Shown one piece after another: positions 15,482 through 35,110 of a stretch of DNA of 64,000 nucleotides. Below the pieces are notes generated by a model, which made no database searches, was not told the DNA's origin, and saw only the letters and a list, made by a program, of their open reading frames with translations. A program made the position numbers and the translations under genes. The first letter of the stretch is position 1. The number at the start of each line of letters is the position of its first letter. The stretch is from assembly GCA_019695335.1 (NCBI GenBank), contig JAIBAF010000002.1, forward strand, positions 64,474 to 128,473, given 5' to 3'. Origin of the DNA: a bacterium (GTDB lineage Bacteria; CLD3; SB21).

Positions 15482-15838
15482 ATGTTTGATTTCAAAGAAT
15501 GTGACGTAAATGAATTGGCAGACAAGCTCAATCTATCGACAAGGCAAATTCAAAGAATTGCATTATCCAGATTCAAAAAGCGACCTCATGCCTTTTTGGA
15601 ATCGTTGCGCCTCCATACGGCAATAAATGCTATTGTACATAGTAAACCTGTGTCGCTTGAAGCTGTAGCAAAATTTGCCGGTTTCAGAACGTACGATGCA
15701 TTTCGAAAATCTTTTCACCGGTGTTTTGGAATCGCCCCGTCAAAATGTAAAATCATTGCAGTTACTGCTCATGATAAATTCCAATTACTCAAGACATGGC
15801 AAAACAAAATCGAAAAGCGTTTTACTTTAAAGGAATAA
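15482..15838 (+). CDS. Small AraC/XylS-type HTH transcriptional regulator (DNA-binding domain only); candidate cluster regulator
   Basis: LADKLNLSTRQIQRI...FLE..RL..A...L......SL..VA...GF.....F.R.F....G..P AraC-type double-HTH pattern; AAGGAG-like RBS (tagggggcgttATG). Confidence 0.6.
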   Translation: MFDFKECDVNELADKLNLSTRQIQRIALSRFKKRPHAFLESLRLHTAINAIVHSKPVSLEAVAKFAGFRTYDAFRKSFHRCFGIAPSKCKIIAVTAHDKFQLLKTWQNKIEKRFTLKE

Positions 15839-15845
15839 GCGTACA

Positions 15846-18737
15846 ATGCAAATTTTTCCAAAAATACTAATGCGAATAGCTGCCGGACCTATCGCCGAAT
15901 TGCAGCAACTCGAAGCGCCGGAAACATTCAAACGAATTAAGCGCAAAATTGAACTCGAGCGACAGTTAGCTTCACAGAAACAATTGGTCTGCGACATGCT
16001 GTTTGAACACATCAAACTGGCATCCAATCAACAACTTTACCAGAAAAATCTGCTTAATTTAAAAAGGGACATTTTTAATCTTCGCAAATTCGATCATCCT
16101 AAAAATCTCGAAATCATAGCTGCGCTCCCGGCGGAACTCCGTAATGCGCTTGCGACTCTGGAGAGTTTGGTCAAAACACGCGATGATTGGTCACAAGCTG
16201 TTGACCGATTGTTTAATTCTGAATTGAATCAGGCGCACTCTGTTCTAAAAAATTTGGCTCGAAACCCATCTTTGCAAAAAGGCCTCGTTTTATCTTCGCA
16301 ATCACTTTTACAAAATGTTAACGAATTTATTGCCCGCACTGAAATGCCATCCCGCCGCGCTTTTCAAACTATCGAATCGCTGATGAAATATCTTTCACGC
16401 ACGTACGCCAAAACTTCTCCTTTCAGTACATTTACCCATCTTTCATTGGGTAATCTTTCTGACAATCAAAATTCATTCATTGAATTTGCAAGTGACATTA
16501 TCAGTGCATCTCAAAGCCACGTCCGGTTAAATAATTTTTTGTTCCAATATTTACACGGGCTTCTGATCAAGCATCCGGAAATCAGGAAAAAAATATGGCT
16601 TCGCCTGAATCCTACTTTGATGAAGGATGGTACCGATTACCGTTTTCTTACCAACCATAACAACGTCGAGGCATTTCAAAAAATTGAAGCGATTCCGGTA
16701 ATAGAAGTTTTTGTGTATCTATGCATGCAACGACCGGAAGGAATTTCTTACGAGGACCTCGTTCAAACCATTCTTTTGGAAGAATATATTGATGCACCGG
16801 TTGAAGAAATAGAAGGATTTCTTGACGAATTGATCAATTTCGGTCTGCTGGAATTCGATTTGCGCGTTTCAGGAATCGATCCGGATTGGGACGAGCGTTT
16901 GACCGGGCAATTGCATTTTTTACAAAATCCTTTAGCGATAGAATTAATTTCTTCTTTAAAAAACATCAGAAAAAAAGCTGAAGAATTTGCTCAAACAAAC
17001 GATGTCAAACATCGATATGAATTACTTAAAAGGACGCACGAGGAATTCAAAAATATCTGCAAGAAAATTTATATCTCCGCCGGTTTGGATGAAAAAGCTT
17101 TTGAACCGGTAACGCCTGCTCCATCTTCAAAACAAGAAAAAGAAAAAACAGAGAACGGCGACAATGAACTTCAGGAAAAAAATGAAAACGGCGAAGAGGT
17201 TTTTCAACGGGTAATTTCTACGGTTTTCCGATTCAAACCCGAACAAATGTATTACGAGGACTCCAGCTTAATACCGAAATTTTCGGTTCGAATGGATGTT
17301 ATTGCCGATAAAATTCAATCTTTAAATGTTTTGCTTGAAACTTTGTCACTTTTTGAAGGCCGTATGGATGAGTTTGATATCATGACCAACTACTTTGCAA
17401 AAAAATACGGCGATGAAGCATCGGTCAATCTGATTACTTTCTATGAGGATTTTTATCGCGATTACAAAAAACCCGAGGCCGAGCGTCAAGATCGGTTAAA
17501 GAACCAACATTACCGGCAATTTTTAAAGGATCAAACTATAACTCCCAAAGAAGAAAAGACAAAGGAAGAAATAAAAGAGGAAAAAATTGATGATGTTTCT
17601 CCGGCGATGATTATTTCGGAAATCGATGAACGAAACAAACTTCGCAAATTATGGCAGGAAGCTTTAGGACAACGGCTGCTCAAAACGCAAGGATTGTCGG
17701 ATGAACATAAAATTACGGTTGAAGACGTCCGTGAAATCAATCGTCAATTCAATTTAATCAGTCAAGATAATCAGGTGTCTTTGGGCGCTTTTCTGCAATG
17801 GTTCGAAGATCGGGGACAATTTAAAGCGGTTGTCAATGGCACTTTTCCGGGTTATGGGAAAATGTTCAGCCGTTTTTTACACGTTTTCGAACCGGAAAAC
17901 ACGCAAATGTTGCGGGAATGGAATCAGCATGTGATTCCGGAAAATGCAATATTTCTCGAAGACTGTGACGGATCTTACTTCAACGCCAATCTCCATCCGC
18001 CTTTGATGCCATTCGAAGTTCGAATTCCGGGCGGCCACAATAGCTTGAAAACCGATTTACAAATTCCTGTCACGGATTTGGCTGTAAGAATCGAAAGCCG
18101 GCAATTGATTCTTTATCACCAACCGAGCGGGAAACGTGTTTTTATATTTGATCTCGGCTTTCAAGGTCACGGCGGACGCTCACCCCTTTTTCAGCTTTTG
18201 GAAAAATTTACGGCGGCAAAATATTGGTCGGTTTATCCGGTTAACCAATCGATCAATCTTGCCGTTCAAAGCGCGCCTGAAAATAAAGAACAAAAAAACG
18301 TACAAATATCGCCTAGAATTATTTTTGAAGACTGGCTCGTTTTGCAAAGAAAGTCATGGTCCATTGACTGTAGCCAATTGCCGGTCAAAAAAAACGATGA
18401 AACGGAGGCCGCTTATTTTGTGAGAGCCAATGAATGGCGGATCGCTCTGGATATTCCTGACGAGGTTTTTGTGTTTGTCGCTTCCCGTGGAGGCCAGGAA
18501 ATGCTGAAACCGGAACAGGCACGTAAACTCCGCCGTGATGATTACAAACCGCAATACATTGCGTTCAAAAACCCGTTTTTGGTCCGGTTATTTAATAAAT
18601 GCGCGGAGAAAGCTCCTAATCGTTTGAAAATCGAAGAAATGCTTCCCGCATCCGATCAGTTATTGTCCATCGGCGATAAAAAACATGTTTCGGAATCTGT
18701 CATTCAATGGTATAAATTTAATGGCACAAATTTTTAA
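15846..18737 (+). CDS. Large protein (963 aa), proposed lanthipeptide dehydratase N-terminal (glutamylation) half of a split LanB
   Basis: Size and position immediately upstream of a separately encoded LanB C-terminal (SpaB_C) domain, in a cluster with LanC, LanT and precursors. I do not recognise specific motifs myself, so this is assigned mainly by context. Confidence 0.55.
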   Translation: MQIFPKILMRIAAGPIAELQQLEAPETFKRIKRKIELERQLASQKQLVCDMLFEHIKLASNQQLYQKNLLNLKRDIFNLRKFDHPKNLEIIAALPAELRNALATLESLVKTRDDWSQAVDRLFNSELNQAHSVLKNLARNPSLQKGLVLSSQSLLQNVNEFIARTEMPSRRAFQTIESLMKYLSRTYAKTSPFSTFTHLSLGNLSDNQNSFIEFASDIISASQSHVRLNNFLFQYLHGLLIKHPEIRKKIWLRLNPTLMKDGTDYRFLTNHNNVEAFQKIEAIPVIEVFVYLCMQRPEGISYEDLVQTILLEEYIDAPVEEIEGFLDELINFGLLEFDLRVSGIDPDWDERLTGQLHFLQNPLAIELISSLKNIRKKAEEFAQTNDVKHRYELLKRTHEEFKNICKKIYISAGLDEKAFEPVTPAPSSKQEKEKTENGDNELQEKNENGEEVFQRVISTVFRFKPEQMYYEDSSLIPKFSVRMDVIADKIQSLNVLLETLSLFEGRMDEFDIMTNYFAKKYGDEASVNLITFYEDFYRDYKKPEAERQDRLKNQHYRQFLKDQTITPKEEKTKEEIKEEKIDDVSPAMIISEIDERNKLRKLWQEALGQRLLKTQGLSDEHKITVEDVREINRQFNLISQDNQVSLGAFLQWFEDRGQFKAVVNGTFPGYGKMFSRFLHVFEPENTQMLREWNQHVIPENAIFLEDCDGSYFNANLHPPLMPFEVRIPGGHNSLKTDLQIPVTDLAVRIESRQLILYHQPSGKRVFIFDLGFQGHGGRSPLFQLLEKFTAAKYWSVYPVNQSINLAVQSAPENKEQKNVQISPRIIFEDWLVLQRKSWSIDCSQLPVKKNDETEAAYFVRANEWRIALDIPDEVFVFVASRGGQEMLKPEQARKLRRDDYKPQYIAFKNPFLVRLFNKCAEKAPNRLKIEEMLPASDQLLSIGDKKHVSESVIQWYKFNGTNF

Positions 18738-18750
18738 ACTAAAAAAACCG

Positions 18751-18773
18751 ACTCTGAACTTGTTTCAGAGTCT
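18751..18773 (+). terminator. Perfect hairpin (GACTCTGAA-cttgt-TTCAGAGTC) between the two LanB halves; possible attenuator or partial terminator
   Basis: 9-bp perfect inverted repeat 14 nt after the stop codon; weak T-run after it. Confidence 0.4.
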
Positions 18774-18884
18774 CTAATTCTTCAGAATGGTATTGCACAG
18801 ACTCCTTCCGCCTCAGTGAATCGGAGTGATGAAAGTGTCTGCTATTCTGCAACCAAATAATTTTCAATTCTTAATTTTTAATTT

Positions 18885-19889
18885 ATGAAAAATGTCTGGA
18901 CGTCTGCTTATTTCTTTTACGCCGAGCCTTGGGAAAATTTTCTGTCGAAAACAGTCCACCCTTTTATCCAAAATGTAATGAAAGAAAAATTGGCCGATCA
19001 GTTTTTCTTTATCCGTTATTGGGAAAAAGGCCCGCATATTCGGTTGCGCTTCAAAGGCGAAGATAATATTATCGAGAAGAAGCTTAAACCTTATTTAACG
19101 GATTATTTTACCGATTTTTTTAAAGCACGGCCATCTCAACGCTATGAGCCGGAATGGATAAAACAATTGCCGCCCGAAAAAGCATGGTTTCCCAATAACA
19201 GCATTCAATGGGTGGATTACGAACCGGAAATCGAGCGCTATAGCGGGCAAGCAGGAATACTCATTGCCGAAAAGCAATTCGAAATATCGTCAAAAGTGGT
19301 ATTGTCCATTATCGAAGAAAACCGATCATGGAGTTATGACAGCGCTTTGGGCGCCGCAGTGCAATTGCATTTGGGTTTTGCTTATGCGATGGGTATGAGT
19401 CTTTATGAGGCGAAATATTTTTTTTCAGTGATTGCAGAGGGATGGATGTCCAGTGCGGTTGGACACAGTCTTTCGGCAGAAAATTTTCAGGAAAAAAAGA
19501 ATGAAATTTTGAAGGTTTTTGAGGAACATTTTAATAAGCAGCAATCGGAGCTTATACCGTTTCAGCAAACTTTGTGGGAAGCGCTCATCGATCATGCCGA
19601 TTTCGAGCAGGCATGGCTGAATGACTGGCTGCACGGTATGAAGGGTATTCTGACTGAATTGAACGGACTTTATTCAAAAAATAAATTGATCTTTCCAAAA
19701 AGTTTTAGAATCAATGACCAAATTGATGTTCCATCGAAACGCCAGTTATTGTGGTCGATCTGGACGAGTTATATTCACATGACCAATAACCGCTTGGGAA
19801 TCCAAAATCAGGATGAAGCTTTTTTGGGATATTTACTCAAAAGGAGTTTGGAAATTTGGCTGAGCGGTGACACGCACTGCCTGTGGTAA
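18885..19889 (+). CDS. Lanthipeptide dehydratase C-terminal elimination domain (SpaB_C / thiopeptide-type bacteriocin biosynthesis domain), stand-alone
   Basis: FFFIRYWEKGPHIRLRFKG and YEPEIERYSGQAG match the FFIRY..PHIRLRI and Y..EVERYGG motifs I recall from the NisB elimination domain. Confidence 0.8.
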   Translation: MKNVWTSAYFFYAEPWENFLSKTVHPFIQNVMKEKLADQFFFIRYWEKGPHIRLRFKGEDNIIEKKLKPYLTDYFTDFFKARPSQRYEPEWIKQLPPEKAWFPNNSIQWVDYEPEIERYSGQAGILIAEKQFEISSKVVLSIIEENRSWSYDSALGAAVQLHLGFAYAMGMSLYEAKYFFSVIAEGWMSSAVGHSLSAENFQEKKNEILKVFEEHFNKQQSELIPFQQTLWEALIDHADFEQAWLNDWLHGMKGILTELNGLYSKNKLIFPKSFRINDQIDVPSKRQLLWSIWTSYIHMTNNRLGIQNQDEAFLGYLLKRSLEIWLSGDTHCLW

Positions 19890-19899
19890 GAAAAAACAC

Positions 19900-20125
19900 A
19901 ACAAAACTAAAAGGAGAGTGATGTCCCTTGAAGGTGTGACGTGATTTTAGCAGTTTAACAAATAACTAATTGTTTAACAATGGGGAAAATTATAATGGGA
20001 AGTTTCGTATTACAGTGATCGAGCCAGCAAGCATTGATCATTTATTAGTAATATGAACTTCCCGATATTAAGCTAATGAAAGCCAATAACATTAGCAATT
20101 CCCTGAATCTAAGGAGATTTCAGTC
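19900..20125 (+). promoter_or_regulatory. Conserved precursor-upstream element, copy 1: SD plus 7-codon mini-ORF (19921..19944, MSLEGVT), TATAAT box (19991..19996), 17/16-bp inverted repeat (19997..20063) 62 nt before the precursor ATG
   Basis: About 225 nt repeated with high identity upstream of all three precursor genes; the inverted repeat is GGGAAGTTTCGTATTAC ... GTAATATGAACTTCCC. Confidence 0.6.
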
Positions 20126-20428
20126 ATGGGAAAGAAATTAAAACTCAAACTCGAAGACTTGAAAGTCCAGAGCTTCGTAACGGCAGCCAAATTCATTGTC
20201 GGTGGTTTATTGCCGACCCATCCGGATGCATGCGGTACGAATACTTGCCAGCAATATACTGAGGTTGGTTGTGGTCCTACAATTGGATGTGAGTCAGCCC
20301 AATGCGGCGATACTGTGGGGTGTACCTATGGCGGTGAATATACTCTGTGTGGTTCTATTTGCCAAAATACAGGGAATTGTACAACCGAAGCAACTGCACA
20401 CACAGAATGTTCATGGCAGCAATGTTAA
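20126..20428 (+). CDS. RiPP precursor peptide 1 (100 aa): leader MGKKLKLKLEDLKVQSFVTAAKFIVGG, then a 73-aa core with 11 Cys and 16 Ser/Thr
   Basis: AAGGAG RBS 9 nt upstream; leader shared with two paralogs; GG cleavage motif; next to LanB, LanC and LanT. Confidence 0.8.
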   Translation: MGKKLKLKLEDLKVQSFVTAAKFIVGGLLPTHPDACGTNTCQQYTEVGCGPTIGCESAQCGDTVGCTYGGEYTLCGSICQNTGNCTTEATAHTECSWQQC

Positions 20429-20435
20429 CCAATCT

Positions 20436-20470
20436 GCGAGGTGTGGTAGTACTGCACCTCGCTATTTTTT
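20436..20470 (+). terminator. Rho-independent terminator (GCGAGGTG-loop-CACCTCGC followed by TATTTTTT)
   Basis: 8-bp GC-rich stem plus T-tract 8 nt after the precursor stop. Confidence 0.6.
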
Positions 20471-20509
20471 AACCCATTGGTGTTTCTGTAATACACAGGC
20501 AATAAAGAA

Positions 20510-22459
20510 ATGAAGTTATTAAATTTTCTATTTCTAGCGACTTTACTAATTGGAAGCGATATTGTTGCGCAAAAAAGCAATAATGAGAATTCTAACTACA
20601 AAAAAGTAATCGAACAATTAGATAGTTGTTTTCAAAAAAAATGCCTATCAGTAGACGAGCTAAAAAATTATGCTGCCGCGCATATTCATGAATATAAAAT
20701 CAAACTCATCACTTGGCGCCTTTTCGATAGACTGAGCGATGGGCATTTAAAAAAAGCCGAAAAAGCACTGGATATGGCCTTTCAGATGGATTTAAAAGAT
20801 AATGAGGCTTTGTTTCTTAAGGCCATTCTTGAAAAAGAAAAAGGAAATAATAATGCAGCAGAAATATTTAACAAGTTGATTGACAATGTCAAGAACACTT
20901 ACGGGTTCAAAAAGCCGATAAATGAACTTGCAGAAATATTTTTTGAAGAAGATCGCTATAAGGAGCTAATCGAGCTATTATCAAAATACAAACATGACTC
21001 TGAAAGCTTTGAAATTTTTTTCAATTCTTTGATAGCTGATGGAGATGAAATAAAAACAACAAAAGTTTTTTACGAGATTTTAGAAAACGCCCGAGATTCA
21101 TTATTCATAAATAGTTTTTACATGCAAGCAGAACCCATTGCTGAAAAAGATGAAACTGTAGCTTGGGCAGCTTTGAAATTGCCAAATGCAAAAATTTCTT
21201 TTTTAAAAAAATTCTGGCAAAAGCGAAATCCGACGTTAACTCGCGACAGTAATCCGCGGCTTGTCGAACACTATAAAAGGCTGCAGTACGCTCGACAATT
21301 TTATTATAAATTAGGAAATCCAGGTTATGACGACAGAGGATTGATCTATATTAGACGTGGGAAACCCGACCGATGGTATGTTAATGACGAATTAACAAAT
21401 CTCTCTTGGGTATATGAGGATGATAAAAACCCTGCACATTTCGATTTTGTAAGTTCGGAATTTGGAGAGTATAAATTGGGTAATATCGGTGGTAGTGTTG
21501 TAGATCGAGCGCATCTGCATCCTTTTTATCAAAAAATGGCACAAAAATATTTAATGTGGAATTTGGCAGCATCAAGAGACAAAAAGCGGCTAATGGAAGA
21601 AATCAATCAGCAAATGTCTGCCGAACTTATTCGGATGGAATTTTATGAATCAAAGAAGATATCTTATATTTTTAGTCCCAATACGCCGCATCTTCCTGTC
21701 AATATACGTTTTGCTTCATTTAAGAAAACCATCGATACAACGACACTTGATATTTCTATCGCAATTCCTGTTTCAGAGTTAATATTTCATCAGAATCAAT
21801 CGGAAATAACAGTGCGAATCAAAGCGTTTGACAGCGATTTTGTTGAACAAGAAACTCAAGGTAAAAATTTGACTTTAAGTTCACAATTTAAAAATGAGAT
21901 GCATCTTGTTAGTGCATTTTCGCTGAAATTAAAGCCCAATCGTTATCGTATCGCTTTAGAGGTTGCTAATAATAATGAGGAGAAGCAAGGGATTTATTAT
22001 TTCGATTTAGACGTACGTGATTTTCAAAGCAGAGAATTGATGGTGAGTGACATCGATTGGGCTACGCGAATAGAAAATTTAGACTATTACAGTGGCATAG
22101 TTAAAGAGCATGCAAATGTGAAGATAATTCCATATCCGTTTACCAAGTTCCAACATCATCAGACTCTGTCTTTGTATTACGAAATTTACAACCTGACTTT
22201 AGACAATAATGGCCATTCGCAATACGAAGTAAGCTACAGCATCAACCCCAAGAAGAATTTTTTTGGAAAATTATTCGGTGCTATCAAAAAATCAGTAAAC
22301 ATTACAACTCCCAAGCAAGGGTCCTCGATATTCGAATTTGAATATATCACTTTGGATTTAAGCAACCTAGAAAAAGGCGAGGCTGATTTCATATTGCGAG
22401 TTTACGACAAAATCTCAAAACAGCAGATAGATCATAGGGAAACTGTATTTATTGAGTAA
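20510..22459 (+). CDS. Secreted TPR-like / GWxTD-like domain protein (649 aa), paralog of 29069..31219
   Basis: Signal peptide MKLLNFLFLATLLIGSDIVAQ; central FWQKRNP...YKRLQYARQFYY...PGYDDRGLIYIRRGKPD resembles the GWxTD-domain signature as I remember it, which is uncertain. Confidence 0.5.
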   Translation: MKLLNFLFLATLLIGSDIVAQKSNNENSNYKKVIEQLDSCFQKKCLSVDELKNYAAAHIHEYKIKLITWRLFDRLSDGHLKKAEKALDMAFQMDLKDNEALFLKAILEKEKGNNNAAEIFNKLIDNVKNTYGFKKPINELAEIFFEEDRYKELIELLSKYKHDSESFEIFFNSLIADGDEIKTTKVFYEILENARDSLFINSFYMQAEPIAEKDETVAWAALKLPNAKISFLKKFWQKRNPTLTRDSNPRLVEHYKRLQYARQFYYKLGNPGYDDRGLIYIRRGKPDRWYVNDELTNLSWVYEDDKNPAHFDFVSSEFGEYKLGNIGGSVVDRAHLHPFYQKMAQKYLMWNLAASRDKKRLMEEINQQMSAELIRMEFYESKKISYIFSPNTPHLPVNIRFASFKKTIDTTTLDISIAIPVSELIFHQNQSEITVRIKAFDSDFVEQETQGKNLTLSSQFKNEMHLVSAFSLKLKPNRYRIALEVANNNEEKQGIYYFDLDVRDFQSRELMVSDIDWATRIENLDYYSGIVKEHANVKIIPYPFTKFQHHQTLSLYYEIYNLTLDNNGHSQYEVSYSINPKKNFFGKLFGAIKKSVNITTPKQGSSIFEFEYITLDLSNLEKGEADFILRVYDKISKQQIDHRETVFIE

Positions 22460-22573
22460 ATAATTATCCTATACCGGAAGGCAAGACGACATTAGAAGTC
22501 ACAGTCAAAGACTTGACTTCGAATCAGGAGACGGTATCAAGGCTTGGATTGAATATTAGCAATGACGAAAAAT

Positions 22574-22596
22574 AATGGTTCTGATAAAGAACCATT
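22574..22596 (+). terminator. Hairpin AATGGTTCT-gataa-AGAACCATT downstream of the GWxTD-like gene (no T-tract)
   Basis: 9-bp perfect inverted repeat. Confidence 0.3.
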
Positions 22597-22624
22597 ACAA
22601 CGACAAATGCAAAACTAGTTATAG

Positions 22625-22845
22625 AAAGGAGGATGATGCGTTTTGAAGGTGTAAAGTGATTCACGCAGTTTTAGCTAAAGTAACAATTTTTTTTAACAGC
22701 AGGAAAAATATAAATGGGAAGTTACGTATTACGGTGATCGAGCCAGCAAGCATTGATCATTTATTAGTAATACGAACTCCCCATTGTGAAGCTAATGAAA
22801 ACCAATAACATTAGCAATTCCTGAAAATTCAAGGAGATTTCAGTC
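22625..22845 (+). promoter_or_regulatory. Conserved precursor-upstream element, copy 2: mini-ORF 22633..22659 (MMRFEGVK) and inverted repeat 22716..22782
   Basis: Same architecture and spacing as copy 1 (63 nt from inverted repeat to ATG); TATAAAT box immediately before the repeat. Confidence 0.6.
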
Positions 22846-23130
22846 ATGGGTAAGAAATTAAAACTCAAACTCGAAGACTTGAAAGTACAGAGCTTTGTGA
22901 CGGTAGCCAAGAAACGGATCATGGGAGGCGCTGAGCAGACATTGACCGGTTGTCCTGACCCAACCAATCCTAATCTTGGATGCACTGAGGTTGGGTGCGA
23001 AACGGCGCAAGTCAATTGTACAGGTCCAACTTATACAATTGATTTATGGTGCCAGACAGGTTTGTGTACATACCAGCCATGTCCAAGTCAAGGTTCAGAC
23101 TGCACGATTGATTTAGCCTGTACCTGGTAA
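22846..23130 (+). CDS. RiPP precursor peptide 2 (94 aa): leader MGKKLKLKLEDLKVQSFVTVAKKRIMGG, then a 66-aa core with 9 Cys
   Basis: Shared leader and GG site; the core N-terminus TLTGCPDPTNPNLGCTEVGC is shared with precursor 3. Confidence 0.8.
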   Translation: MGKKLKLKLEDLKVQSFVTVAKKRIMGGAEQTLTGCPDPTNPNLGCTEVGCETAQVNCTGPTYTIDLWCQTGLCTYQPCPSQGSDCTIDLACTW

Positions 23131-23146
23131 ACGGTAATTACAAAAA

Positions 23147-23193
23147 GGAAAGCCTGTGTTCTGAACAGTTGAATTTAAGAGCCGGGCTTTCCC
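23147..23193 (+). terminator. Terminator-like structure (GGAAAGCC...GGCTTTCC with a nested TGTTC-t-GAACA), then an A/T-rich run
   Basis: Inverted repeats read from the sequence 16 nt after the precursor stop; long loop, so low confidence. Confidence 0.35.
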
Positions 23194-23294
23194 ATTATTT
23201 AAAATAAATGAAAAATAATACAATTTGGAACCCGTCGTATTCATATTTTTAGAGTAAACTCAAAGATTGATAAACGGAAGGTCTGTAAAAAAAA

Positions 23295-24269: not shown

Positions 24270-24287
24270 AATATTAGAGATTTTTTA

Positions 24288-26171
24288 ATGAATCAAACCA
24301 GTAATAACAGTTCTTTAGAACTGGCGAGATTAAGTCGTTCTATTCTAGAAGCAGCGCAAGATGATATTTTCGGTATTAGCTGGAAGACGATGGCTTTACA
24401 AAACAGGATTATCAGTTGGAACACATCTGAAAGTTTATATTCAGGCACCGCGGGCATTGCACTTTTTTTATTAAACTATTATCGGCACTCCGGAAATCAG
24501 GAAAGCATTGAAGCTGTACGTAATGCGGCGAAATGGATCGAGCATCATTGCAAAGAATTGGACAGTGATTATTACGCCTTTTTTACCGGAAGAATGGGCA
24601 TCCCATATTTTTTATTAGAATTGCATAAAGAAATACGCGATGAGAGCTTATTACATTCTGCAATTTCAATTGCCAAAAAAAGCAAAGTAATGTTGGCTTC
24701 AAACCAACATGTATGCGATTTGATCAATGGATTTTCGGGAACCCTGTTAGGGTTATTGCACGTGTATCATGCCACACGTTCAGATGATATCGAAGATTTA
24801 GCCGACAGATTTGCTGAGAAATTGATCGAAGAGTGTTGGGTTGCCGAACATGGAGTCTATTGGGACCGTTCAGAACAAACGATCCGAGGGCTTTGTGGAT
24901 TTTCGCATGGCGCGGCCGGAATCGGTTTCGTTTTTCTTGAACTCGGGCGTTATTTTCAAAACGAAGCTTTTTATTGGTTAGCGAGAGAGGCGTTTAGATA
25001 TGAGAATTGTTATTTCAATGCGCAATGGAACAACTGGCCGGATTTTCGCAAAGGGATTTGGTTTGAAAAAGACGCCGAAGAATTTGAAAAGGCGTACAAA
25101 AGTAATAATATCGATTTTTTTACAACGCCTAGGGATTTCAGCGCCTGGTGCCATGGAGCAGCCGGTATCGGTTTATCGCGTTTGCATGCATGGAAAGTTT
25201 TGGGAGACAAAGAATATTTTCATGATTATGAGAATGCTGTAAAGAAAGTTCGTTCAGTAGATTTAGTATCGCGGCCTCAACGTTCTTTTACTTTGTGTCA
25301 TGGATCGGGCGGCAATGCCGATCTTCTGATTGAAGCCTATCGTTTAACCGGAAATGAGTCATACCTGCAGGATGCTTATCGAATTTCAGAACTGGCGCTT
25401 CAATCAAGGCAGGAAATAGGTAAGTACATCTCAGGGTTTGCTGATGCAGGCAAAGAAGAGGATTTAAGCCTTTTTATGGGGAATGCCGGTATCGGTTATT
25501 TTTATTTAAGATTATTAAATCCGGAGATCAAGTCAATTTTAATGCCCGTTGTTGAAAGTAATGGAGTCAAGCCCAATCCAAAATATAAAACGCTCAACAT
25601 TTCTTTATCGCAATTACAAAAGCGAATGTGCGCGAAAATTTATCGGCGAACGACTTTTTTTATTGAACAATCGTTACCGGAATTTTTCAAAGAAAACAGT
25701 TCTTTGAATTCATGCTTACAGGATATAGAAAAGTTTTCTGTCCAAAATACAGACTCACGGTTAGATGAAGTCTTCAAAATTGAGAAAACAGCCAGAGAAT
25801 TGAATTTAGCTGTCGAAAGTTTTGCTTTACTTGAAGCTGAGAATCAATACCGACCAAAAAATTATGACGGAGATACCAAGTTAAAACTATCGCCAAGAGT
25901 GAGGTTGCTTACTACCAATTCAAATGAATCATCAGAAAAATTCATTGTACTTTATGTTACAATAGAAGGCGTTAAAGAAACGCTTGTTGAACAATTCACT
26001 GGATTAGTTTTATCGGCTTTCAGCGAGCCTTGTTCATCGAAAGCCGCTTTAACTAAAATTTTCGATATGATTGAATCGGAAAACCATCACGAACTCAAAC
26101 AGATCGTGATTCAGCAGATCAATGACGCTTTTTTAGCGGGGATATTAATTATTGCTGACACACATTTTTAA
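24288..26171 (+). CDS. LanC-like lanthipeptide cyclase with a ~210-aa C-terminal extension of unknown function
   Basis: Repeated GxAGI motifs (SGTAGIALFLL, HGAAGIGFVFL, GNAGIGYFYL); zinc-ligand motifs AWCHGAAGIG and LCHGSGGNADLL; 627 aa versus about 410 for canonical LanC. Confidence 0.8.
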   Translation: MNQTSNNSSLELARLSRSILEAAQDDIFGISWKTMALQNRIISWNTSESLYSGTAGIALFLLNYYRHSGNQESIEAVRNAAKWIEHHCKELDSDYYAFFTGRMGIPYFLLELHKEIRDESLLHSAISIAKKSKVMLASNQHVCDLINGFSGTLLGLLHVYHATRSDDIEDLADRFAEKLIEECWVAEHGVYWDRSEQTIRGLCGFSHGAAGIGFVFLELGRYFQNEAFYWLAREAFRYENCYFNAQWNNWPDFRKGIWFEKDAEEFEKAYKSNNIDFFTTPRDFSAWCHGAAGIGLSRLHAWKVLGDKEYFHDYENAVKKVRSVDLVSRPQRSFTLCHGSGGNADLLIEAYRLTGNESYLQDAYRISELALQSRQEIGKYISGFADAGKEEDLSLFMGNAGIGYFYLRLLNPEIKSILMPVVESNGVKPNPKYKTLNISLSQLQKRMCAKIYRRTTFFIEQSLPEFFKENSSLNSCLQDIEKFSVQNTDSRLDEVFKIEKTARELNLAVESFALLEAENQYRPKNYDGDTKLKLSPRVRLLTTNSNESSEKFIVLYVTIEGVKETLVEQFTGLVLSAFSEPCSSKAALTKIFDMIESENHHELKQIVIQQINDAFLAGILIIADTHF

Positions 26172-26177
26172 ATTTAC

Positions 26178-28388
26178 ATGAGCAAACATACAATGATCTT
26201 TAACTTCCCATTTTCAAAACAGCTAGACCGTATGGATTGCGGGCCTACGTGTCTTCGCATGATCGCACGGCACTACGGCAAATCTTACCCCATTCAATAT
26301 CTTCGTGAAAAATGCTTTATTACCAGAGAAGGCTCTTCGCTCCTTGGCATCAGCGATGCAGCCGAATCGATCGGTTTTCGGACGCTATCGATCAAAGTGA
26401 ATTATGAAAAATTAGACGATGACGTACCGCTTCCATGTATCGTCCACTGGAACCAAAACCATTTTGTGGTAGTGTACAAGATAAACCGTAACAAAGTTTA
26501 TGTAGCTGATCCGGCTCACGGGCTTTTGAAGTATAAGAAAGAAGAATTTCTTAAAAGCTGGCTCAGTGTAGAATCGAACGGCCGGCAGGAAGGCGTTGCA
26601 CTTGTGTTGGAGCCTTCTCCCGATTTCTATCATGCCGATGAAGGTGTTACTCAAGACCGGACGAAAATGTCTTTTTTATTGACGTATCTCAAACCGTATA
26701 AAAAATTCTTTGTTCAGATATTTCTCAGCATGCTGATCGGCAGCCTTTTAGGCTTGATCTTTCCTTTTTTGACGCAAGCCATCGTCGATTTTGGAATCAA
26801 TAATCAAAACATCGGATTTGTCTATACGATCTTAATCGCACAACTCATGCTTTTCACCGGCCGTACGGCCGTCGAATTTATCCGAAGCTGGATTTTCCTG
26901 CACATTGGAACACGAATCAACGTGACGATCATTTCGGATTTTTTGATCAAACTGATGAAATTGCCGATGCCATTTTTTGACACCAAAATGATCGGCGATT
27001 TATTGCAGCGCATCGGCGATCACACGCGCATCCAGCAGTTTCTTACTTCCACAACCATCAATTCGTTATTTGCCATCATCAATTTGTTGATCTTCGGCTT
27101 GGTGCTGGCCCTCTATAGCTCATACATTTTTGGCGTGTTTTTTATCGCATCGGTTTTATCCACGTCCTGGATACTTGTTTTCATGAAGAAAAGGAAAGAA
27201 ATCGATTATAAACGATTCAATCAATTATCTCAAAATCAAAGCCAGTTGATCCAATTGATCACCGGTATGCAGGAAATCAAGCTCAATGGAGCGGAAAAAC
27301 AAAAGCGATGGAATTGGGAAAATGTCCAGGCAAAGTTATTCAAAATCAGTGTCAGCTCTCTCACTTTAGATCAAACCCAGCAAGCGGGTATGCTCTTTAT
27401 CAATGAAACGAAAAATATTTTCATATCTTTTCTTGCTGCAAAGGAAGTGATCGACGGCAACATGACTTTGGGCATGATGATGGCCGTGCAATATATCATC
27501 GGCCAATTGAACGCTCCTATCGGGCAATTAATCGGATTTGTTCAGACCGCTCAAGACGCCAAAATCAGTCTTGAACGTATGGGCGAGATTCACAACAAAA
27601 AAAACGAAGAAGACCCTGAGACGGCTGGTTTAAATGCGTTACCAACCGCTCGTACCATCAGTGTGAATAACTTGTCTTTTCAATATGAGGGACCGCATTC
27701 GGAATTTGTTCTCAAAGATATTTCATTAGCCGTACCGGAAGGAAAAGTGACGGCGATCGTTGGAACCAGTGGAAGCGGCAAAACGACGCTGATGAAATTA
27801 TTTTTGAAGTTTTACGAGCCCGTTCAGGGGAATATTTTTTTGGGAGGAATTGATTTACAGAAAATAAGCGCCCGGCTTTGGCGCCAGAAATGCGGTGTGG
27901 TCATTCAAGACGGATTTATTTTCTCGGATACGATTGCCAATAATATCGCTCTCGGGCATGAACGCATCGATCGTCAACGCGTGGAGGAAGCGGCTCATAT
28001 TGCCAATATTGACGATTTTATCGAAACGCTGCCTCTGGGTTACAACACAAAAATCGGTTCGGAAGGACACGGTCTAAGCCAGGGACAAAGGCAGCGGATT
28101 CTGATTGCAAGGGCTGTGTACAAAAATCCGGAATTTATCTTTTTTGATGAAGCGACCAGCGCGTTGGATGCTAATAATGAACGAACAATCATCGATAATC
28201 TGCAAAAATTCTTTCAAGGAAAAACCGTTGTGGTGATTGCCCACCGGCTCAGCACGGTCAAGAACGCCGATCAAATTATCGTTTTGGAAAAAGGCCGGTT
28301 GATCGAGTCGGGAAGCCACTCCGAATTGGCCGACATTCGCGGCGCCTATTTTCATCTCGTGAAAAATCAATTGGAATTGGGAAGTTAA
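26178..28388 (+). CDS. Bacteriocin/lanthipeptide ABC exporter with N-terminal C39 peptidase domain (LanT/SunT type)
   Basis: C39 catalytic region MDCGPTCLRMIARHYGK and the HWNQNHFVVVY His; 6-TM domain; Walker A GTSGSGKTT, signature LSQGQRQRILIARA, Walker B IFFDEATSALD. Confidence 0.9.
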   Translation: MSKHTMIFNFPFSKQLDRMDCGPTCLRMIARHYGKSYPIQYLREKCFITREGSSLLGISDAAESIGFRTLSIKVNYEKLDDDVPLPCIVHWNQNHFVVVYKINRNKVYVADPAHGLLKYKKEEFLKSWLSVESNGRQEGVALVLEPSPDFYHADEGVTQDRTKMSFLLTYLKPYKKFFVQIFLSMLIGSLLGLIFPFLTQAIVDFGINNQNIGFVYTILIAQLMLFTGRTAVEFIRSWIFLHIGTRINVTIISDFLIKLMKLPMPFFDTKMIGDLLQRIGDHTRIQQFLTSTTINSLFAIINLLIFGLVLALYSSYIFGVFFIASVLSTSWILVFMKKRKEIDYKRFNQLSQNQSQLIQLITGMQEIKLNGAEKQKRWNWENVQAKLFKISVSSLTLDQTQQAGMLFINETKNIFISFLAAKEVIDGNMTLGMMMAVQYIIGQLNAPIGQLIGFVQTAQDAKISLERMGEIHNKKNEEDPETAGLNALPTARTISVNNLSFQYEGPHSEFVLKDISLAVPEGKVTAIVGTSGSGKTTLMKLFLKFYEPVQGNIFLGGIDLQKISARLWRQKCGVVIQDGFIFSDTIANNIALGHERIDRQRVEEAAHIANIDDFIETLPLGYNTKIGSEGHGLSQGQRQRILIARAVYKNPEFIFFDEATSALDANNERTIIDNLQKFFQGKTVVVIAHRLSTVKNADQIIVLEKGRLIESGSHSELADIRGAYFHLVKNQLELGS

Positions 28389-28467
28389 ACTCGGGTGTTG
28401 AAAATTGAATTTAGTGAGTAAGTGGTATAGTCTTCGTCAGAGCTATTGACGAAGAAAATAAAAAAAC

Positions 28468-28690
28468 TAAATCTTCGAAAGGAGCGTGATGTCCCTTGAA
28501 GGTGTGAAGTGATTTCAGCAGTTATCATAAACTAATTCATTAACAACGGGGAAAATTATAAAGGGAAGTTACGTATTACCGTGATCGAGCCTCGCTGGGT
28601 TTTGATCATTTAAGTAATACGAACTTCCCGATATTAAGCTAATGAAAACATCTAACATTAGCAATTCCCCGAGAATATTGGAGATTAAAA
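28468..28690 (+). promoter_or_regulatory. Conserved precursor-upstream element, copy 3: mini-ORF 28489..28512 (MSLEGVK) and inverted repeat 28563..28629
   Basis: Same architecture; 61 nt from inverted repeat to ATG; TATAAA box before the repeat. Confidence 0.6.
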
Positions 28691-28999
28691 ATGGGAAAGA
28701 AATTAAAACTCAAACTCGAAGACTTGAAAGTCCAAAGCTTCGTGACATCGTCCAAGAAACAGTTATTAGGGGGCGCAGAACCGACGTTGACAGGCTGTCC
28801 CGATCCAACCAATCCTAATCTTGGCTGTACGGAAGCTGGCTGTCCCACCATGCAAGTTGCGTGTGGTGGTGGAACTGAATTCACATGTACCGGAATCTAT
28901 GATTGCCGGACTGAAGCATGCTCTTATCAACAGTCTGGCTGTGGAACCTGTTATACGGATTGCGCTTGTCAAACAGGCGGCGGAACTGCGTGTTATTAG
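28691..28999 (+). CDS. RiPP precursor peptide 3 (102 aa): leader MGKKLKLKLEDLKVQSFVTSSKKQLLGG, then a 74-aa core with 12 Cys
   Basis: Shared leader and GG site; the core is Cys/Gly/Thr-rich. Confidence 0.8.
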   Translation: MGKKLKLKLEDLKVQSFVTSSKKQLLGGAEPTLTGCPDPTNPNLGCTEAGCPTMQVACGGGTEFTCTGIYDCRTEACSYQQSGCGTCYTDCACQTGGGTACY

Positions 29000-29017
29000 G
29001 TTGCAAATAACTGATAA

Positions 29018-29052
29018 TGGGATTCCATTGCAAAATGGAATCCCACTTTTTA
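29018..29052 (+). terminator. Rho-independent terminator (GGGATTCCATT-gcaaa-AATGGAATCCC followed by ACTTTTTT)
   Basis: 11-bp perfect stem plus T-tract 18 nt after the precursor stop; the next gene starts 17 nt later. Confidence 0.65.
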
Positions 29053-29068
29053 AGGGGTAAATAATTTT

Positions 29069-31219
29069 ATGAAGTATTATTTTTTTGTAATCGTCTATTT
29101 GTTTTTATCAATTAACAGATCAATTTATTCTCAACAGGACTCAAATTTGACTGTTCAAGAACTTGAAACACAAGCAGCTTCGGGCAATCGAGAAATCAGG
29201 TTACAACTGGCTCATCACTACCTGAAAAGCGAACAATTTGACAAAATCGTTCAGCTTTATAAAACTGATTACAAAAAAAAGCAGTGCACTTCCGATGAAT
29301 ATAAGATTTACGCCATTGCGCGTTTGCAAAGTTACAGAAATCTCGTTATTACGCGTAAATTAATTGATCGCTTGATTGGCGATGATTTACGCCATGCCAA
29401 ATTAGCGTTGGCTGAAGCCTTAAAACTTGACGGCCATGACATAGAAGCAAAATTTTTTACGGGTGTATTGAATCGGATTATTGGAAAAGATGAAGAGGCA
29501 TTAAAAATCCTTTACGACGTTTTTGAGGAAGACTGCAATTATCAAACGTATGCGTTCACCGAGGTCGCATCTGAACTCAGTCTCATTTTTATAAAAAAGG
29601 GCGATTATGATGCGGTAAAAAAATTGCATGAAAAACAGCTTACTACTTATCCGAAAGACGCATGGTCTAAAATACAATTGGCCGTAGCCTATGGCGAATT
29701 AGATAGCGCCGATATTATGATGAAACTATTTTTCGAAGGACTTGATCAATTGATCGATCAGAAACAACTGTTTCAATTGTTTGAAGATTGTTCTATCATA
29801 GCAACAACAGATGAGAAAAAAAATTGGAAAGAATTGAATACAAACAATGATAAAAAAGATTTTTTAAGAAGTTTTTGGAAAAAACGCGATCCTAATCCAT
29901 TTGACGATATCAACGAAGCATTAATTCAATATTTTAAACGTGTCCATTACGCTAAAGCTATGTATCCAAAACCTCAATCCCCTGGATTTGACGATCGGGG
30001 ACTGATTTATGTGAGGTTTGGAAAACCGGATTATATTTTTTATGGGAGCAGCGATGTCAATATTCGCGAAAACGAATCATGGATTTATTATAACCTCGAA
30101 GGAGGCCTGCATTTTGATTTTGTCCTAATCGGGACTTCCTATGAATTGCGCCCTCTTGGCGATGCCTCGATCATGACTCAAGCGATCATGGGTGAAAAGA
30201 AATTATCCGATTTGTATAGAGAACGAAGTCATCTGGATCCTTATTACACAAACATTCAATTTAAATTCGAAACGGGCCGCTACAATTCGTCAACGATTGA
30301 AAGCAGTTTTGAGTACCGGCGGGATTATGAAAAAATGTTGGAGTATTCTCAAAAACAATATTTTGCGTTTAATTCGTCCACAGCGCCCCTTTTTGTTAAT
30401 ACACGATATGCAACATTTAAAGACTCCGATCAGAAATCACGGTTGGATTTTTATTATATATTGCCTTATTCACAAATGAATTTTTTAGACACGCTTGGAG
30501 CTTTTAAATGGTCAAAGAATTTTGCTGCTATAAAAATCTTTGATTATAAAAATTATCGTGACGTTGTAACACTGGAGCGGGAGAATCTGATTTTTGCAGA
30601 TAGTATGCAGCAAAAAACTTACGGTTTGGTTGACGAATTCCGGTATTCTTTAAATCCAGGAAAATATATCCTTGCCTTTCAAATCAGTAACAATGACAAA
30701 CAAAAATTCAATGTGTTCCAATATGAAGTGTTTGTCAGAGATTACTCTGCGGATACATTGACTATCAGTGACATTCAATTGGCGGCATTTATAAGCGAAA
30801 ACGATTCGACACAAATTCAGTTTATCAAACCCCATTCGGCCGTAAAAGTAATACCCAATGCAGCGGCTCATATTACGCGTTCATTGCCGTTGTCGATTTA
30901 TTTTGAGATTTACAATCTGACGCTCGATAATGACGGACGCAATTCATATGAAATATCCTATCGGTTCAAACAGCCAGAAAATTCAAGGAGCGGTTTATTC
31001 GCCAGAATTAAAAAATTATTTATTAACGAAAAAAAATCTTCTATTGCTTCAACGACGATGTTGAGCGGTAATTCTACTACAGAAAGGTCATACATTAGTT
31101 TGGATGTCAGCGAATTGAATGGAGGGCTCATCGATTTGGAAATTCGCGTCAAAGACCTGATTACCAATATAGAAACTTATTCTAACGTTGAGTTAAATTT
31201 AGTGGATAAGAAGAAATGA
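29069..31219 (+). CDS. Secreted TPR-like / GWxTD-like domain protein (716 aa), paralog of 20510..22459
   Basis: Signal peptide; FWKKRDPNPFDD...YFKRVHYAKAMY...SPGFDDRGLIYVRFGKPD; same C-terminal architecture (…LSLYYEIYNLTLDN…) as the paralog. Confidence 0.5.
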   Translation: MKYYFFVIVYLFLSINRSIYSQQDSNLTVQELETQAASGNREIRLQLAHHYLKSEQFDKIVQLYKTDYKKKQCTSDEYKIYAIARLQSYRNLVITRKLIDRLIGDDLRHAKLALAEALKLDGHDIEAKFFTGVLNRIIGKDEEALKILYDVFEEDCNYQTYAFTEVASELSLIFIKKGDYDAVKKLHEKQLTTYPKDAWSKIQLAVAYGELDSADIMMKLFFEGLDQLIDQKQLFQLFEDCSIIATTDEKKNWKELNTNNDKKDFLRSFWKKRDPNPFDDINEALIQYFKRVHYAKAMYPKPQSPGFDDRGLIYVRFGKPDYIFYGSSDVNIRENESWIYYNLEGGLHFDFVLIGTSYELRPLGDASIMTQAIMGEKKLSDLYRERSHLDPYYTNIQFKFETGRYNSSTIESSFEYRRDYEKMLEYSQKQYFAFNSSTAPLFVNTRYATFKDSDQKSRLDFYYILPYSQMNFLDTLGAFKWSKNFAAIKIFDYKNYRDVVTLERENLIFADSMQQKTYGLVDEFRYSLNPGKYILAFQISNNDKQKFNVFQYEVFVRDYSADTLTISDIQLAAFISENDSTQIQFIKPHSAVKVIPNAAAHITRSLPLSIYFEIYNLTLDNDGRNSYEISYRFKQPENSRSGLFARIKKLFINEKKSSIASTTMLSGNSTTERSYISLDVSELNGGLIDLEIRVKDLITNIETYSNVELNLVDKKK

Positions 31220-32517
31220 AAAACCATATTTCTACGTTGCAATCCGAACAAACAAAAAGTGATGAAATTCAAGAAGTGTTGCACTTCGTTCCATCCTGGA
31301 CGATCCGTTGGGGCATTACGGCTATTTTTTTTACCGTTTTGATGATTATATGTGTAGCTTGGTACATTCGCTATCCGGATATGGTTACATCACGCATTAC
31401 TTTGACCAGCGTCTCTCCCCCCGTCACACTCATCGCCCGCACCAACGGTAAACTAACCGAATTAAATGTCCATGACGGCGATTCCGTTTATACCGGATCC
31501 GTCCTCGCTGTGATTGAAAATTCTTCCAATTCTTCGGAAGTATCAGCGCTAAAAGAACAACTAATCCGATTTAAACCTTATTTGGATAATCCTCTCGATG
31601 TCCGTTTTGAATTTAACCGCTTCTATCAGTTAGGCGAACTTCAAACGCCGTATTCGGAACTTCTTCGCAAGTGGGAAGATTACAAATCTTTTCATTCTTT
31701 TAACTACCATCCCCGTAAAATCCAAACGATCAGGACACAGATCACCGTGTTGAATGAACTCAACAGCCGGTTAGAAAAACAAAAAAACTTATTGGAGGAA
31801 GAGGTCAAGCTCGCTGAGAAAAATCTTAACACCGGAAAAAGCCTTCGTGAAAAAGGAGTCGCCTCGGAAATCGAGCTATCCAATTACGAAAGCATTTATC
31901 TTCAGAAAAAATACGGTTATGAAAACGCCGAAGCTTCGCTAATCAACAATGCGCTCCAAATCTCGGAATATGAAAAAAATATATTGGATCTGACACGCCA
32001 ATTTGAAGAGGAGAAACTATCCAAAACGGTGGGCATGCAGGAAGCGTATAAATTCCTTCTTGCGTCAATCGATAATTGGGAACAGCGCTACGTATTGAAA
32101 GCGCCTATTGGCGGCAAAGTTTCATTTTTCAAAGTGTGGAGCGTCAATCAATATGTACAAGCCAATGATCTCGTTTTTACCATTGTCGGAGATCACGCAA
32201 CGCCGATAGGTAAAATTTATCTTCAGACGGCAGGATTGGGCAAAATTAAAGAAGGCCAAAAAGTTCAGATTAAGCTGGATAATTACCCCTATCATGAATT
32301 TGGGGTCTTAAACGGTACGGTCGAATCTATTGCACCGGTGGCGACGAATAATGAGTATGCAATCAATATCGCTCTTGCACCGGAGAATAGGACAACTTAT
32401 CACAAAGCCATTACTTTTTCGGAAGGTATGCAAGGCACGGCTGAAATTATCACCGATGACTTGAGATTGCTCGAAAGAATTTTTTATCAAATGCGAGCGT
32501 TGACTTCATCGAACTAA
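31216..32517 (+). CDS. HlyD-family membrane-fusion / bacteriocin secretion accessory protein; 4-nt ATGA overlap with the upstream gene
   Basis: N-terminal TM anchor, long coiled-coil region, C-terminal beta-barrel-like domain; adjacent to a LanT-type exporter. Confidence 0.75.
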   Translation: MKNHISTLQSEQTKSDEIQEVLHFVPSWTIRWGITAIFFTVLMIICVAWYIRYPDMVTSRITLTSVSPPVTLIARTNGKLTELNVHDGDSVYTGSVLAVIENSSNSSEVSALKEQLIRFKPYLDNPLDVRFEFNRFYQLGELQTPYSELLRKWEDYKSFHSFNYHPRKIQTIRTQITVLNELNSRLEKQKNLLEEEVKLAEKNLNTGKSLREKGVASEIELSNYESIYLQKKYGYENAEASLINNALQISEYEKNILDLTRQFEEEKLSKTVGMQEAYKFLLASIDNWEQRYVLKAPIGGKVSFFKVWSVNQYVQANDLVFTIVGDHATPIGKIYLQTAGLGKIKEGQKVQIKLDNYPYHEFGVLNGTVESIAPVATNNEYAINIALAPENRTTYHKAITFSEGMQGTAEIITDDLRLLERIFYQMRALTSSN

Positions 32518-32719
32518 CCTCATTTTTAAATTCCGCAATTTTAAATTCTGCAATCTACTTTGTGATTTTATGCACGAAGTATATGTTTTCTCAAAACATA
32601 CTTGCTATTCAGTTCTTACAATTGTACTTTAGGCCACGATTGTCTGTTGACAGATTTTCGTTATAATTTTGAGATTATTGACCTCACGTTTAGATCACTA
32701 AACGTGTTATTTTAAAAGG

Positions 32720-35072: not shown

Positions 35073-35110
35073 ATTTATCTTCTCGAAGTGTTATAAGAGA
35101 GGTTTTGACC

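Follow-up and report, generated by a model that had tools for sequence, protein, structure and literature searches.

Can a single set of class I lanthipeptide enzymes, consisting of a dehydratase split into LanB-N and LanB-C and one cyclase, LanC, form about ten rings in substrates 70 residues long? The question is posed by twelve co-oriented genes in a 64,000-nucleotide stretch of bacterial DNA (contig JAIBAF010000002.1 of NCBI GenBank assembly GCA_019695335.1, positions 64,474 to 128,473 of the forward strand; GTDB lineage Bacteria; CLD3; SB21), referred to below as the window. An earlier note on this DNA had read the genes as a class-I-lanthipeptide-type cluster with a split LanB, an extended LanC, C39-ABC/HlyD export and double-glycine (GG) precursors. 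This reading is borne out by matches to hidden Markov models, by the conservation of catalytic residues and by synteny with relatives: all twelve open reading frames (ORFs) are present on the + strand (Table 1), and the profiles that the note had proposed as a check (Lant_dehydr_N, Lant_dehydr_C, LANC_like and Peptidase_C39) all matched. Its further opinion, that the island does not resemble a characterised lantibiotic locus, did not survive: all three precursor leaders pass the model NF038180, and both the pinensin biosynthetic gene cluster (BGC) and the Bacteroidetes type have already been described. The locus is very probably a chromosomal class I lanthipeptide BGC of the pinensin family (Bacteroidota-type).

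The dehydratase is encoded in two halves. The larger protein matches Lant_dehydr_N (PF04738) at 129.9 bits against a cutoff of 28, as expected for the LanB N-terminal half that had been proposed at this position. Its closest solved structure is TbtB (6EC7), the split glutamylation enzyme of thiomuracin (E 1.5e-28), which is matched in three stretches (query aa 4-338, 490-536 and 660-923) and in which RAAVKTSPYSTFT aligns with the LanB-N motif RTYAKTSPFSTFT (aa 185-197). The region from aa ~400 to 650 (17046-17800) is Lys/Glu-rich and partly low-complexity, and only aa 490-536 within it are matched in the TbtB alignment. Orthologues of similar length (930-1025 aa), present in about 15 contigs, suggest that this region is a family trait. 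The smaller protein, separated from LanB-N by a 147-nt gap, is the stand-alone elimination domain (Lant_dehydr_C, PF14028) and carries both motifs previously named for it, FFFIRYWEKGPHIRLRF (aa 40-56) and EPEIERY (aa 113-119). Its residues R55, E115, R118 and H298 align with NisB R786, E823, R826 and H961, in columns that are invariant across four orthologues; R786, R826 and H961 of NisB are reportedly catalytic elimination residues. The dehydratase is also split in all relatives.

The cyclase, annotated 'hypothetical protein' in the NCBI record, matches LANC_like (PF05147) and contains the predicted zinc motifs WCHG (287) and LCHG (336) in addition to GFSHG (204), so that the zinc-site and active-site residues C288 (WCHG), C337-H338 (LCHG) and H207 (GFSHG) are all present. 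It is nearest to LanM cyclase domains (TIGR03897, region 562-932, 247.7 bits; best PDB match LicM2, 9e-17). The cyclase part spans about aa 47-416 and is followed by an extension, aa 417-627 (nt 25536-26168), which, among 1.84 billion library proteins, matches nothing but other LanCs of 640-670 aa. An AlphaFold model of the extension, computed with seven homologues added, has a predicted local distance difference test score (pLDDT) of 82 and a predicted template-modelling score (pTM) of 0.75. It shows a predicted winged-helix fold of three strands and three helices, similar to that of a recognition element (RRE) of ribosomally synthesised and post-translationally modified peptide enzymes. Foldseek retrieved TglHI (1.2e-4) and TbiB1 (probability 1.0), and the Pfam PqqD model (PF05402) gave a weak match (E 0.0012) to one of eight members of the extension family, the window sequence itself being unmatched. 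We predict that the extension is a TglI/PqqD-like RRE, presumed to bind the leader. Known RREs of this type (TglI / NGO1945 (DUF2063), PqqD) partner DUF692/MNIO, lasso or PQQ enzymes, whereas here the domain is fused to a lanthipeptide cyclase and sequence similarity is marginal. No description of a LanC-fused RRE was found in the literature searched, whose coverage was incomplete, so that this shows only that none was found.

The substrates are the three Cys-rich precursors, whose leaders all end in GG as the earlier note had recognised (residues 26-27 or 27-28). The leaders (27 aa in lanA1, MGKKLKLKLEDLKVQSFVTAAKFIVGG, and 28 aa in both lanA2 and lanA3) are near-identical, MGKKLKLKLEDLKVQSFVT...GG, and are encoded by DNA that is 87-92% identical. 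All three pass the NF038180 'pinensin family lanthipeptide' cutoff of 24 bits, by a match to model positions 1-16 of 28 only, and at least two of the precursors, 1 (MBX7150182.1) and 3, bear this family name at NCBI. The cores comprise 73 aa with 11 Cys, 13 Thr and 3 Ser in A1, 66 aa with 9 Cys, 12 Thr and 2 Ser in A2, and 74 aa with 12 Cys, 13 Thr and 2 Ser in A3, and are acidic (7 Asp+Glu, 0-1 Lys+Arg). Their Cys residues are arranged non-randomly with respect to Ser and Thr. When a private Ser/Thr is defined as at least one Ser/Thr between a Cys and the preceding Cys, 31 of the 32 core Cys have one, usually 1-6 residues before the Cys; by comparison with shuffled sequences, p is ~0.0002 for A1 (11/11), ~0.003 for A2 (9/9) and ~0.001 for A3 (11/12). 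Such an arrangement would be expected of a chain of small (methyl)lanthionine rings that for the most part do not overlap, and a chain of this kind is what it predicts. The A2 and A3 cores are alike over their first ~20 residues and diverge thereafter; the A1 core is unrelated to both, and has an orthologue, 50% identical, on the related contig L006 (L numbers are our labels for such contigs). A homology search with precursor 3 in a database of 5.8 billion sequences returned only itself, at a database size at which searches with short peptides fail. Pinensin A measures 22 aa and about 2 kDa (PMC10112250, PMC13532221), and the present cores are about three times its size; such large, ring-dense predicted products (66-74-aa cores, 9-12 Cys) appear to be new or undescribed.

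Export is provided for by two genes that had been correctly recognised. The C39-peptidase ABC exporter, LanT, combines Peptidase_C39, ABC_membrane and ABC_tran domains and contains the motifs DCGPTC (20-25), HFVVV (95-99) and VADP (109-112), which we take to be the sites of the C39 catalytic Cys, His and Asp, together with a Walker A motif (529-536). Its best NCBIfam match is the NHLP exporter model, below the model cutoff, and its orthologues in relatives are 60-66% identical. The HlyD partner closes the island, and HlyD orthologues stand beside LanT in L014, L019, L020, L027 and L028.

How far is this assembly of genes shared? Scans with LanB-C recovered three contigs from metagenome-assembled genomes and 19 metagenome contigs, and a BLAST map of these shows a conserved five-gene cassette of variable order: LanT, HlyD, LanB-N (930-1025 aa), LanB-C and LanC (640-713 aa). 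Two further contigs, L027 and L028, also carry it, about 20 contigs in all, and relatives come from bins assigned to Bacteroidota, Acidobacteriota and Phycisphaerae. Precursors on six contigs, including L006, L007, L014, L020 and L027, carry the leader K(L/M)KLxxLKV(Q/E)SFVT...GG and have cores of about 30-80 aa, among which those of the window lie at the extreme. On L027, a 526-kb ENA contig, nine tandem precursors (19549-21758, -) with KKKLKLxxLKVQSFVT...GG leaders and diverse 30-55-aa cores adjoin the LanC/LanT/HlyD/LanB-N/LanB-C cassette, and on L006 the order is LanB-C, upstream element (see below), A1-like precursor, GWxTD gene and LanC. The split LanB, the extended LanC, export by a peptidase-containing ABC transporter with HlyD, and the multiplicity of precursors recur in relatives and are therefore family traits. 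Prochlorosin/NHLP-type systems are class II (LanM) systems with a conserved leader, hypervariable cores and several precursors per enzyme set; the present locus shares with them several precursors with near-identical leaders and unrelated cores (A1 vs A2/A3), a single enzyme set and a C39-ABC exporter.

The closest described system is the pinensin BGC of Chitinophaga pinensis (MIBiG BGC0001392; Mohr et al. 2015), which comprises pinA, the split pinB1/pinB2, pinC and pinT (PMC10112250, PMC9680876) and has the split LanB, the LanC, the C39-ABC transporter and the NF038180 leader in common with the window. It differs in its 22-aa core, as against 66-74 aa with 9-12 Cys here, and the present locus encodes three precursors, every one of them preceded by a copy of the conserved upstream element and followed by a secreted protein; no GWxTD genes are reported for the pinensin cluster in PMC10112250 and PMC9680876. 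The part of Walker et al. 2020 drawn on here (PMC7268733) describes Bacteroidetes class I precursors (precursor 'family I 17') with an LxLxKx5L...GG leader, C39 proteases and split LanB, and LanCs that group with the cyclase domains of LanM. The GG leader, C39 protease, split LanB and LanM-like LanC are thus common to both, whereas a LanC-fused RRE, GWxTD partners and a conserved upstream element are not mentioned in that part of the paper.

Based on the above data, we propose the following pathway. LanB-N, which is TbtB-like, would recognise the leader and glutamylate Ser/Thr with Glu-tRNA(Glu), and LanB-C would eliminate glutamate to yield dehydroalanine and dehydrobutyrine. The zinc-dependent, LanM-like LanC would then add the Cys thiols, its C-terminal RRE presumably binding the leader. 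Since nearly every Cys is preceded, at a distance of 1-6 residues, by a Ser/Thr of its own, the predicted products are acidic peptides of ~7 kDa that carry up to 9-12 small rings, for the most part without overlap. Lastly, the C39-ABC transporter would cleave after GG and export the peptide together with its HlyD partner.

Directly 5' of each lanA gene lies an element of ~215 nt, of which the three copies are 76-93% identical. A further copy precedes the precursor on L006 (188-401; nhmmer E 2.5e-58), and neither a covariance model nor nhmmer found more in 300 kb of related loci. Copy 1 folds with a minimum free energy (MFE) of -60.7 kcal/mol. In the consensus fold an outer stem is accompanied by two hairpins, an interrupted one of ~25 bp and another of 7 bp, and the fold stops ~20 nt before the AAGGAGA Shine-Dalgarno sequence. 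A scan for sigma-70 promoters gave 34 against 50.5 expected at random, and no promoter is assigned because this count is below the random expectation. We regard the element as a candidate new cis-regulatory RNA or complex operator; it may combine a promoter/operator with a 5' leader RNA that is structured. In its 5' part, at 19914-19944, a Shine-Dalgarno-like box, AAAGGAG, precedes a mini-ORF of 7-8 codons (MSLEGVK and stop), with equivalents at 22629-22659 and 28482-28512; a coding role for this mini-ORF was rejected, as the frame runs much longer in L006 and its length is not conserved.

A strong hairpin stands directly 3' of all three lanA genes, followed in each case by the gene for a secreted protein, and these hairpins are candidate terminators or attenuators. 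Each precursor would accordingly belong to a mini-unit of upstream element, lanA, hairpin and secreted-protein gene, in which A1 and A3 are each partnered by a TPR-GWxTD protein and A2 by the beta-propeller lipoprotein, and the extent of read-through at the hairpin would determine the ratio of peptide to partner. From its position at the start of the island, the AraC-type protein could be the activator of the cluster; its ORF cannot extend further, being bounded by an upstream stop codon.

The description of two of the secreted proteins as GWxTD-like proved apt, as both pass GWxTD models (TIGR04514 / PF20094): protein 1 scores 51.2 bits (cutoff 28) and 29.9 (cutoff 26.9), and protein 2 scores 41.4 (cutoff 26.9). 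Protein 1 consists of a signal peptide, TPR-like repeats (about aa 30-238), the GWxTD domain (about 225-345) and C-terminal beta-sandwich domains, and protein 2 likewise has a signal peptide, TPR-like repeats, a GWxTD domain and C-terminal beta-sandwiches. In the window subfamily the motif reads G(Y/F)DDRG, and the two proteins are 31% identical (pairwise E 2e-81). Their genes follow lanA1 and lanA3 after gaps of 81 and 69 nt, and the stop of the second overlaps the start of HlyD by 4 nt. The exact sequence of protein 2 is missing from the protein collection although its contig neighbours are present, perhaps owing to another start or a pseudogene annotation. Dedicated GWxTD accessories are indeed unusual, as had been suspected: among cassette contigs, only the window and L006 have them, the L006 gene lying after the precursor and before LanC. 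Three relatives of the subfamily were found among 5.8 billion sequences (in L006, L004 and L005), a profile search with five GWxTD proteins gave no new close relatives, and no mention of GWxTD was found in the literature searched.

The secreted protein that follows lanA2 had been called a lipoprotein. A plausible lipobox (LFFSC; N-terminus ...LLFLCILFFSC) agrees with this, and the protein is more exactly described as a divergent WD40-like beta-propeller of 324 aa, with beta-propeller Pfam matches that are all below cutoffs (best 4.5e-10). It is absent from the relatives in the BLAST map. Taken together, the secreted partners most likely bind their cognate mature peptide outside the cytoplasm, for immunity, sequestration or as a chaperone/receptor. 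This role is favoured because of the one-to-one pairing with precursors and the parallel divergence of partners and cores, and because of the TPR scaffold and the translational coupling of the second GWxTD gene to HlyD.

Could the same genes make something else? A split LanB is typical of thiopeptide pathways, and TbtB/TbtC of thiomuracin likewise carry glutamylation and elimination on separate polypeptides; moreover, the pyridine-synthase model NF045556 (TbtD/PbtD) matches LanB-C at 6e-17 and TbtD is among its PDB matches. A thiopeptide- or pyritide-like product, with LanB-C acting as a [4+2] pyridine synthase, is nevertheless extremely unlikely. LanB-C scores 61.9 bits on NF045556, whose cutoff is 325, and the NisB elimination residues are kept. 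The precursors have pinensin-type leaders, and the locus, in contrast to TbtB/TbtC systems, encodes a bona fide LanC with zinc ligands and is predicted to yield thioethers rather than azoles or pyridines. Profile searches of the 12 ORFs and immediate flanks found no YcaO, cyclodehydratase or azoline dehydrogenase. We reject the thiopeptide reading because the pyridine-synthase score is far below cutoff and there is no YcaO or dehydrogenase gene. A second possibility is that the peptides are mainly disulfide-rich, with few or no rings, or that the cluster is silent and decaying. With their 9-12 Cys the cores could become disulfide-bonded once exported, there is no known product, and the cores far exceed those of characterised lanthipeptides such as the 22-aa pinensin A (PMC10112250). 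However, none of the enzyme ORFs is disrupted and their catalytic residues are in place, the Thr+Ser content of each core (14-16) equals or exceeds its Cys count, and the private Ser/Thr pattern, which is far from random, is needed for thioethers and not for disulfides; we therefore hold this explanation to be improbable, if less so than a thiopeptide.

Several findings do weigh against the pinensin-family reading or parts of it. The product is predicted from the genes alone and none has been observed, and for pinensin itself the roles of PinB1/B2/C have 'not yet been confirmed' (PMC9680876). The cluster encodes no LanFEG immunity ABC transporter and no outer-membrane channel, and the AraC gene was not seen beside the cassette in the BLAST map of related contigs. 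The structural model of the GWxTD protein is poor (pLDDT 58.8) and a fold search gave generic TPR matches only. The GWxTD relatives P0005 (L004) and P0003 (L005) stand in unrelated contexts, away from lanthipeptide genes, and given these contexts the GWxTD-lanthipeptide partnership may be loose; the ORF 3' of the L005 gene is not HlyD, and a further contig, L026, gave no additional context. Finally, covariation in the element does not exceed that in shuffles, a result obtained with four very similar copies. This last point, together with the absence of any Rfam match (E<=1, 15000-33000, both strands), also favours the view that the element works as DNA only, as promoter and operator for the AraC-type regulator. 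The dedicated regulator at the start of the cluster and the near-palindromic long stems, which could bind protein, fit such a function, and the identity of the paralogous copies could stem from gene conversion along with the leader-coding DNA. Between the window and L006, however, the element is conserved more than the neighbouring proteins (32-58% aa identity); 95% of alignment cells pair, as against 28-49% in slid controls, and the MFE has z = -4.9 (copy 1). Several conserved G-U pairs are possible only in + strand RNA, the outer stem is kept by one GC-to-AU double change, and pairing reaches to within ~20 nt of the Shine-Dalgarno sequence, where a 5' untranslated region is expected. A DNA-only element is thus conceivable but not the explanation we favour over a structured leader RNA. 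Rather unlikely, in our judgement, is the further alternative that the GWxTD proteins and the lipoprotein are bystander envelope genes with no role in immunity, binding or maturation. The unrelated neighbours of P0003 and P0005, the about 20 related cassettes that do without any GWxTD gene, and the resemblance of the lipoprotein to a near neighbour of the island, the 768-aa WD40 protein (pairwise E 2e-6), speak for it. Against it, L006, from a different organism, repeats the order precursor, GWxTD, LanC with the same upstream element, both window genes come directly after a precursor and its hairpin, one of them overlaps HlyD, and the two GWxTD copies are as diverged as the cores they follow.

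Table 1. Features of the pinensin-family island, with window coordinates and the match or property on which each assignment is based.
Feature	Position	Strand	Evidence
AraC/XylS-type helix-turn-helix regulator, 118 aa, DNA-binding domain only, MarA/SoxS-like size	15482-15838	+	HTH_18 1.7e-14
LanB-N, glutamylation half of split LanB, 963 aa	15846-18737	+	Lant_dehydr_N 1.2e-37
LanB-C, stand-alone glutamate-elimination domain, 334 aa	18885-19889	+	Lant_dehydr_C 2.7e-43; TIGR03891 9e-28
Upstream element, copy 1	19908-20125	+	nhmmer E 2e-63; ends in AAGGAGA Shine-Dalgarno
lanA1 precursor, 100 aa	20126-20428	+	NF038180 33.3 bits
Hairpin and U-run after lanA1	20436-20462	+	12-bp, GC-rich; z = -3.2
Secreted TPR-GWxTD protein 1, 649 aa	20510-22459	+	GWxTD_dom
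Upstream element, copy 2	22623-22845	+	nhmmer E 1.9e-59
lanA2 precursor, 94 aa	22846-23130	+	NF038180 28.9 bits
Strong hairpin after lanA2	23147-23192	+	MFE -26.4 kcal/mol for 23128-23240, z = -3.3
Probable lipoprotein, divergent WD40-like beta-propeller, 324 aa	23295-24269	+	weak beta-propeller Pfam matches; lipobox
LanC cyclase with predicted C-terminal TglI/PqqD-like RRE	24288-26171	+	LANC_like 4.6e-63
LanT, C39, transmembrane and nucleotide-binding domains, 736 aa	26178-28388	+	Peptidase_C39 4.8e-38; ABC_membrane 2e-26; ABC_tran 2.9e-31
Upstream element, copy 3	28476-28690	+	nhmmer E 2.4e-61
lanA3 precursor, 102 aa	28691-28999	+	NF038180 30.3 bits
12-bp hairpin and U-run after lanA3	29018-29045	+	
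Secreted TPR-GWxTD protein 2, 716 aa	29069-31219	+	PF20094 1.7e-10 and TPR matches
HlyD-family membrane-fusion protein, 433 aa, LanT partner	31216-32517	+	HlyD_3 3.6e-17

The island had been placed between the housekeeping genes thiL and rny. Both do flank it (thiL at 11323-12321, -, TIGR01379 2.6e-93; rny at 32720-34363), though thiL is not directly adjacent: a 768-aa WD40 protein (12464-14770, +) and a 129-aa ORF (14771-15160, -) lie in between, the former with a signal peptide and a flank-like G+C of 0.436. The G+C of the island itself is 0.388 as against 0.435 and 0.422 in the flanks (0.42-0.44), and this dip, a hint, is the only pointer to accessory status. The remainder of the window holds housekeeping genes, among them metG, carA, bshA, greA, bioY, thiD, prmC, cysS and fusA. 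Bacillithiol biosynthesis, to which bshA (8054-9274, -; TIGR03999 1.5e-163) belongs, occurs in Firmicutes and in the Bacteroidota/Chlorobiota group, so that this upstream gene gives a weak hint of host affiliation. Further downstream, a 627-aa ORF (35021-36904, +) has a C-terminus resembling NosR-family response regulators and cyclic di-GMP phosphodiesterases; its start overlaps the last 52 nt of bioY (34509-35072) and may be wrongly called. A 1128-aa protein (59810-63196, -) shows an unusual fusion of a long N-terminal TPR array to a ClpB-like double AAA+ module (AAA, AAA_lid_9, AAA_2, ClpB_D2-small).

The system type is already known, and the pinensin-type class I family is extended here rather than overturned. 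New, or at least undescribed, are the prediction of very large, ring-dense products, the predicted identity of the LanC extension as an RRE, the conserved upstream element and the GWxTD pairing. One may go further and suppose, as a speculation that we consider somewhat unlikely, that the window and L006 represent an undescribed pinensin-like sub-type built of repeated modules of structured 5' leader RNA, precursor, attenuator hairpin and secreted partner. If this is true, its products would be the largest and most bridged class I lanthipeptides so far, at about 7 kDa and with 9-12 rings arranged as beads on a string, and the GWxTD proteins would be cognate extracytoplasmic binding/immunity proteins, the first functional context for this domain. 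The upstream element would be a new cis-regulatory RNA, and the LanC-RRE fusion would show how leaders are recognised by this clade of class I cyclases. Independently of such a sub-type, the predicted LanC-fused RRE would account for leader recognition and be useful for genome mining, and the locus gives the uncharacterised GWxTD domain a possible functional context and provides a candidate new leader RNA.

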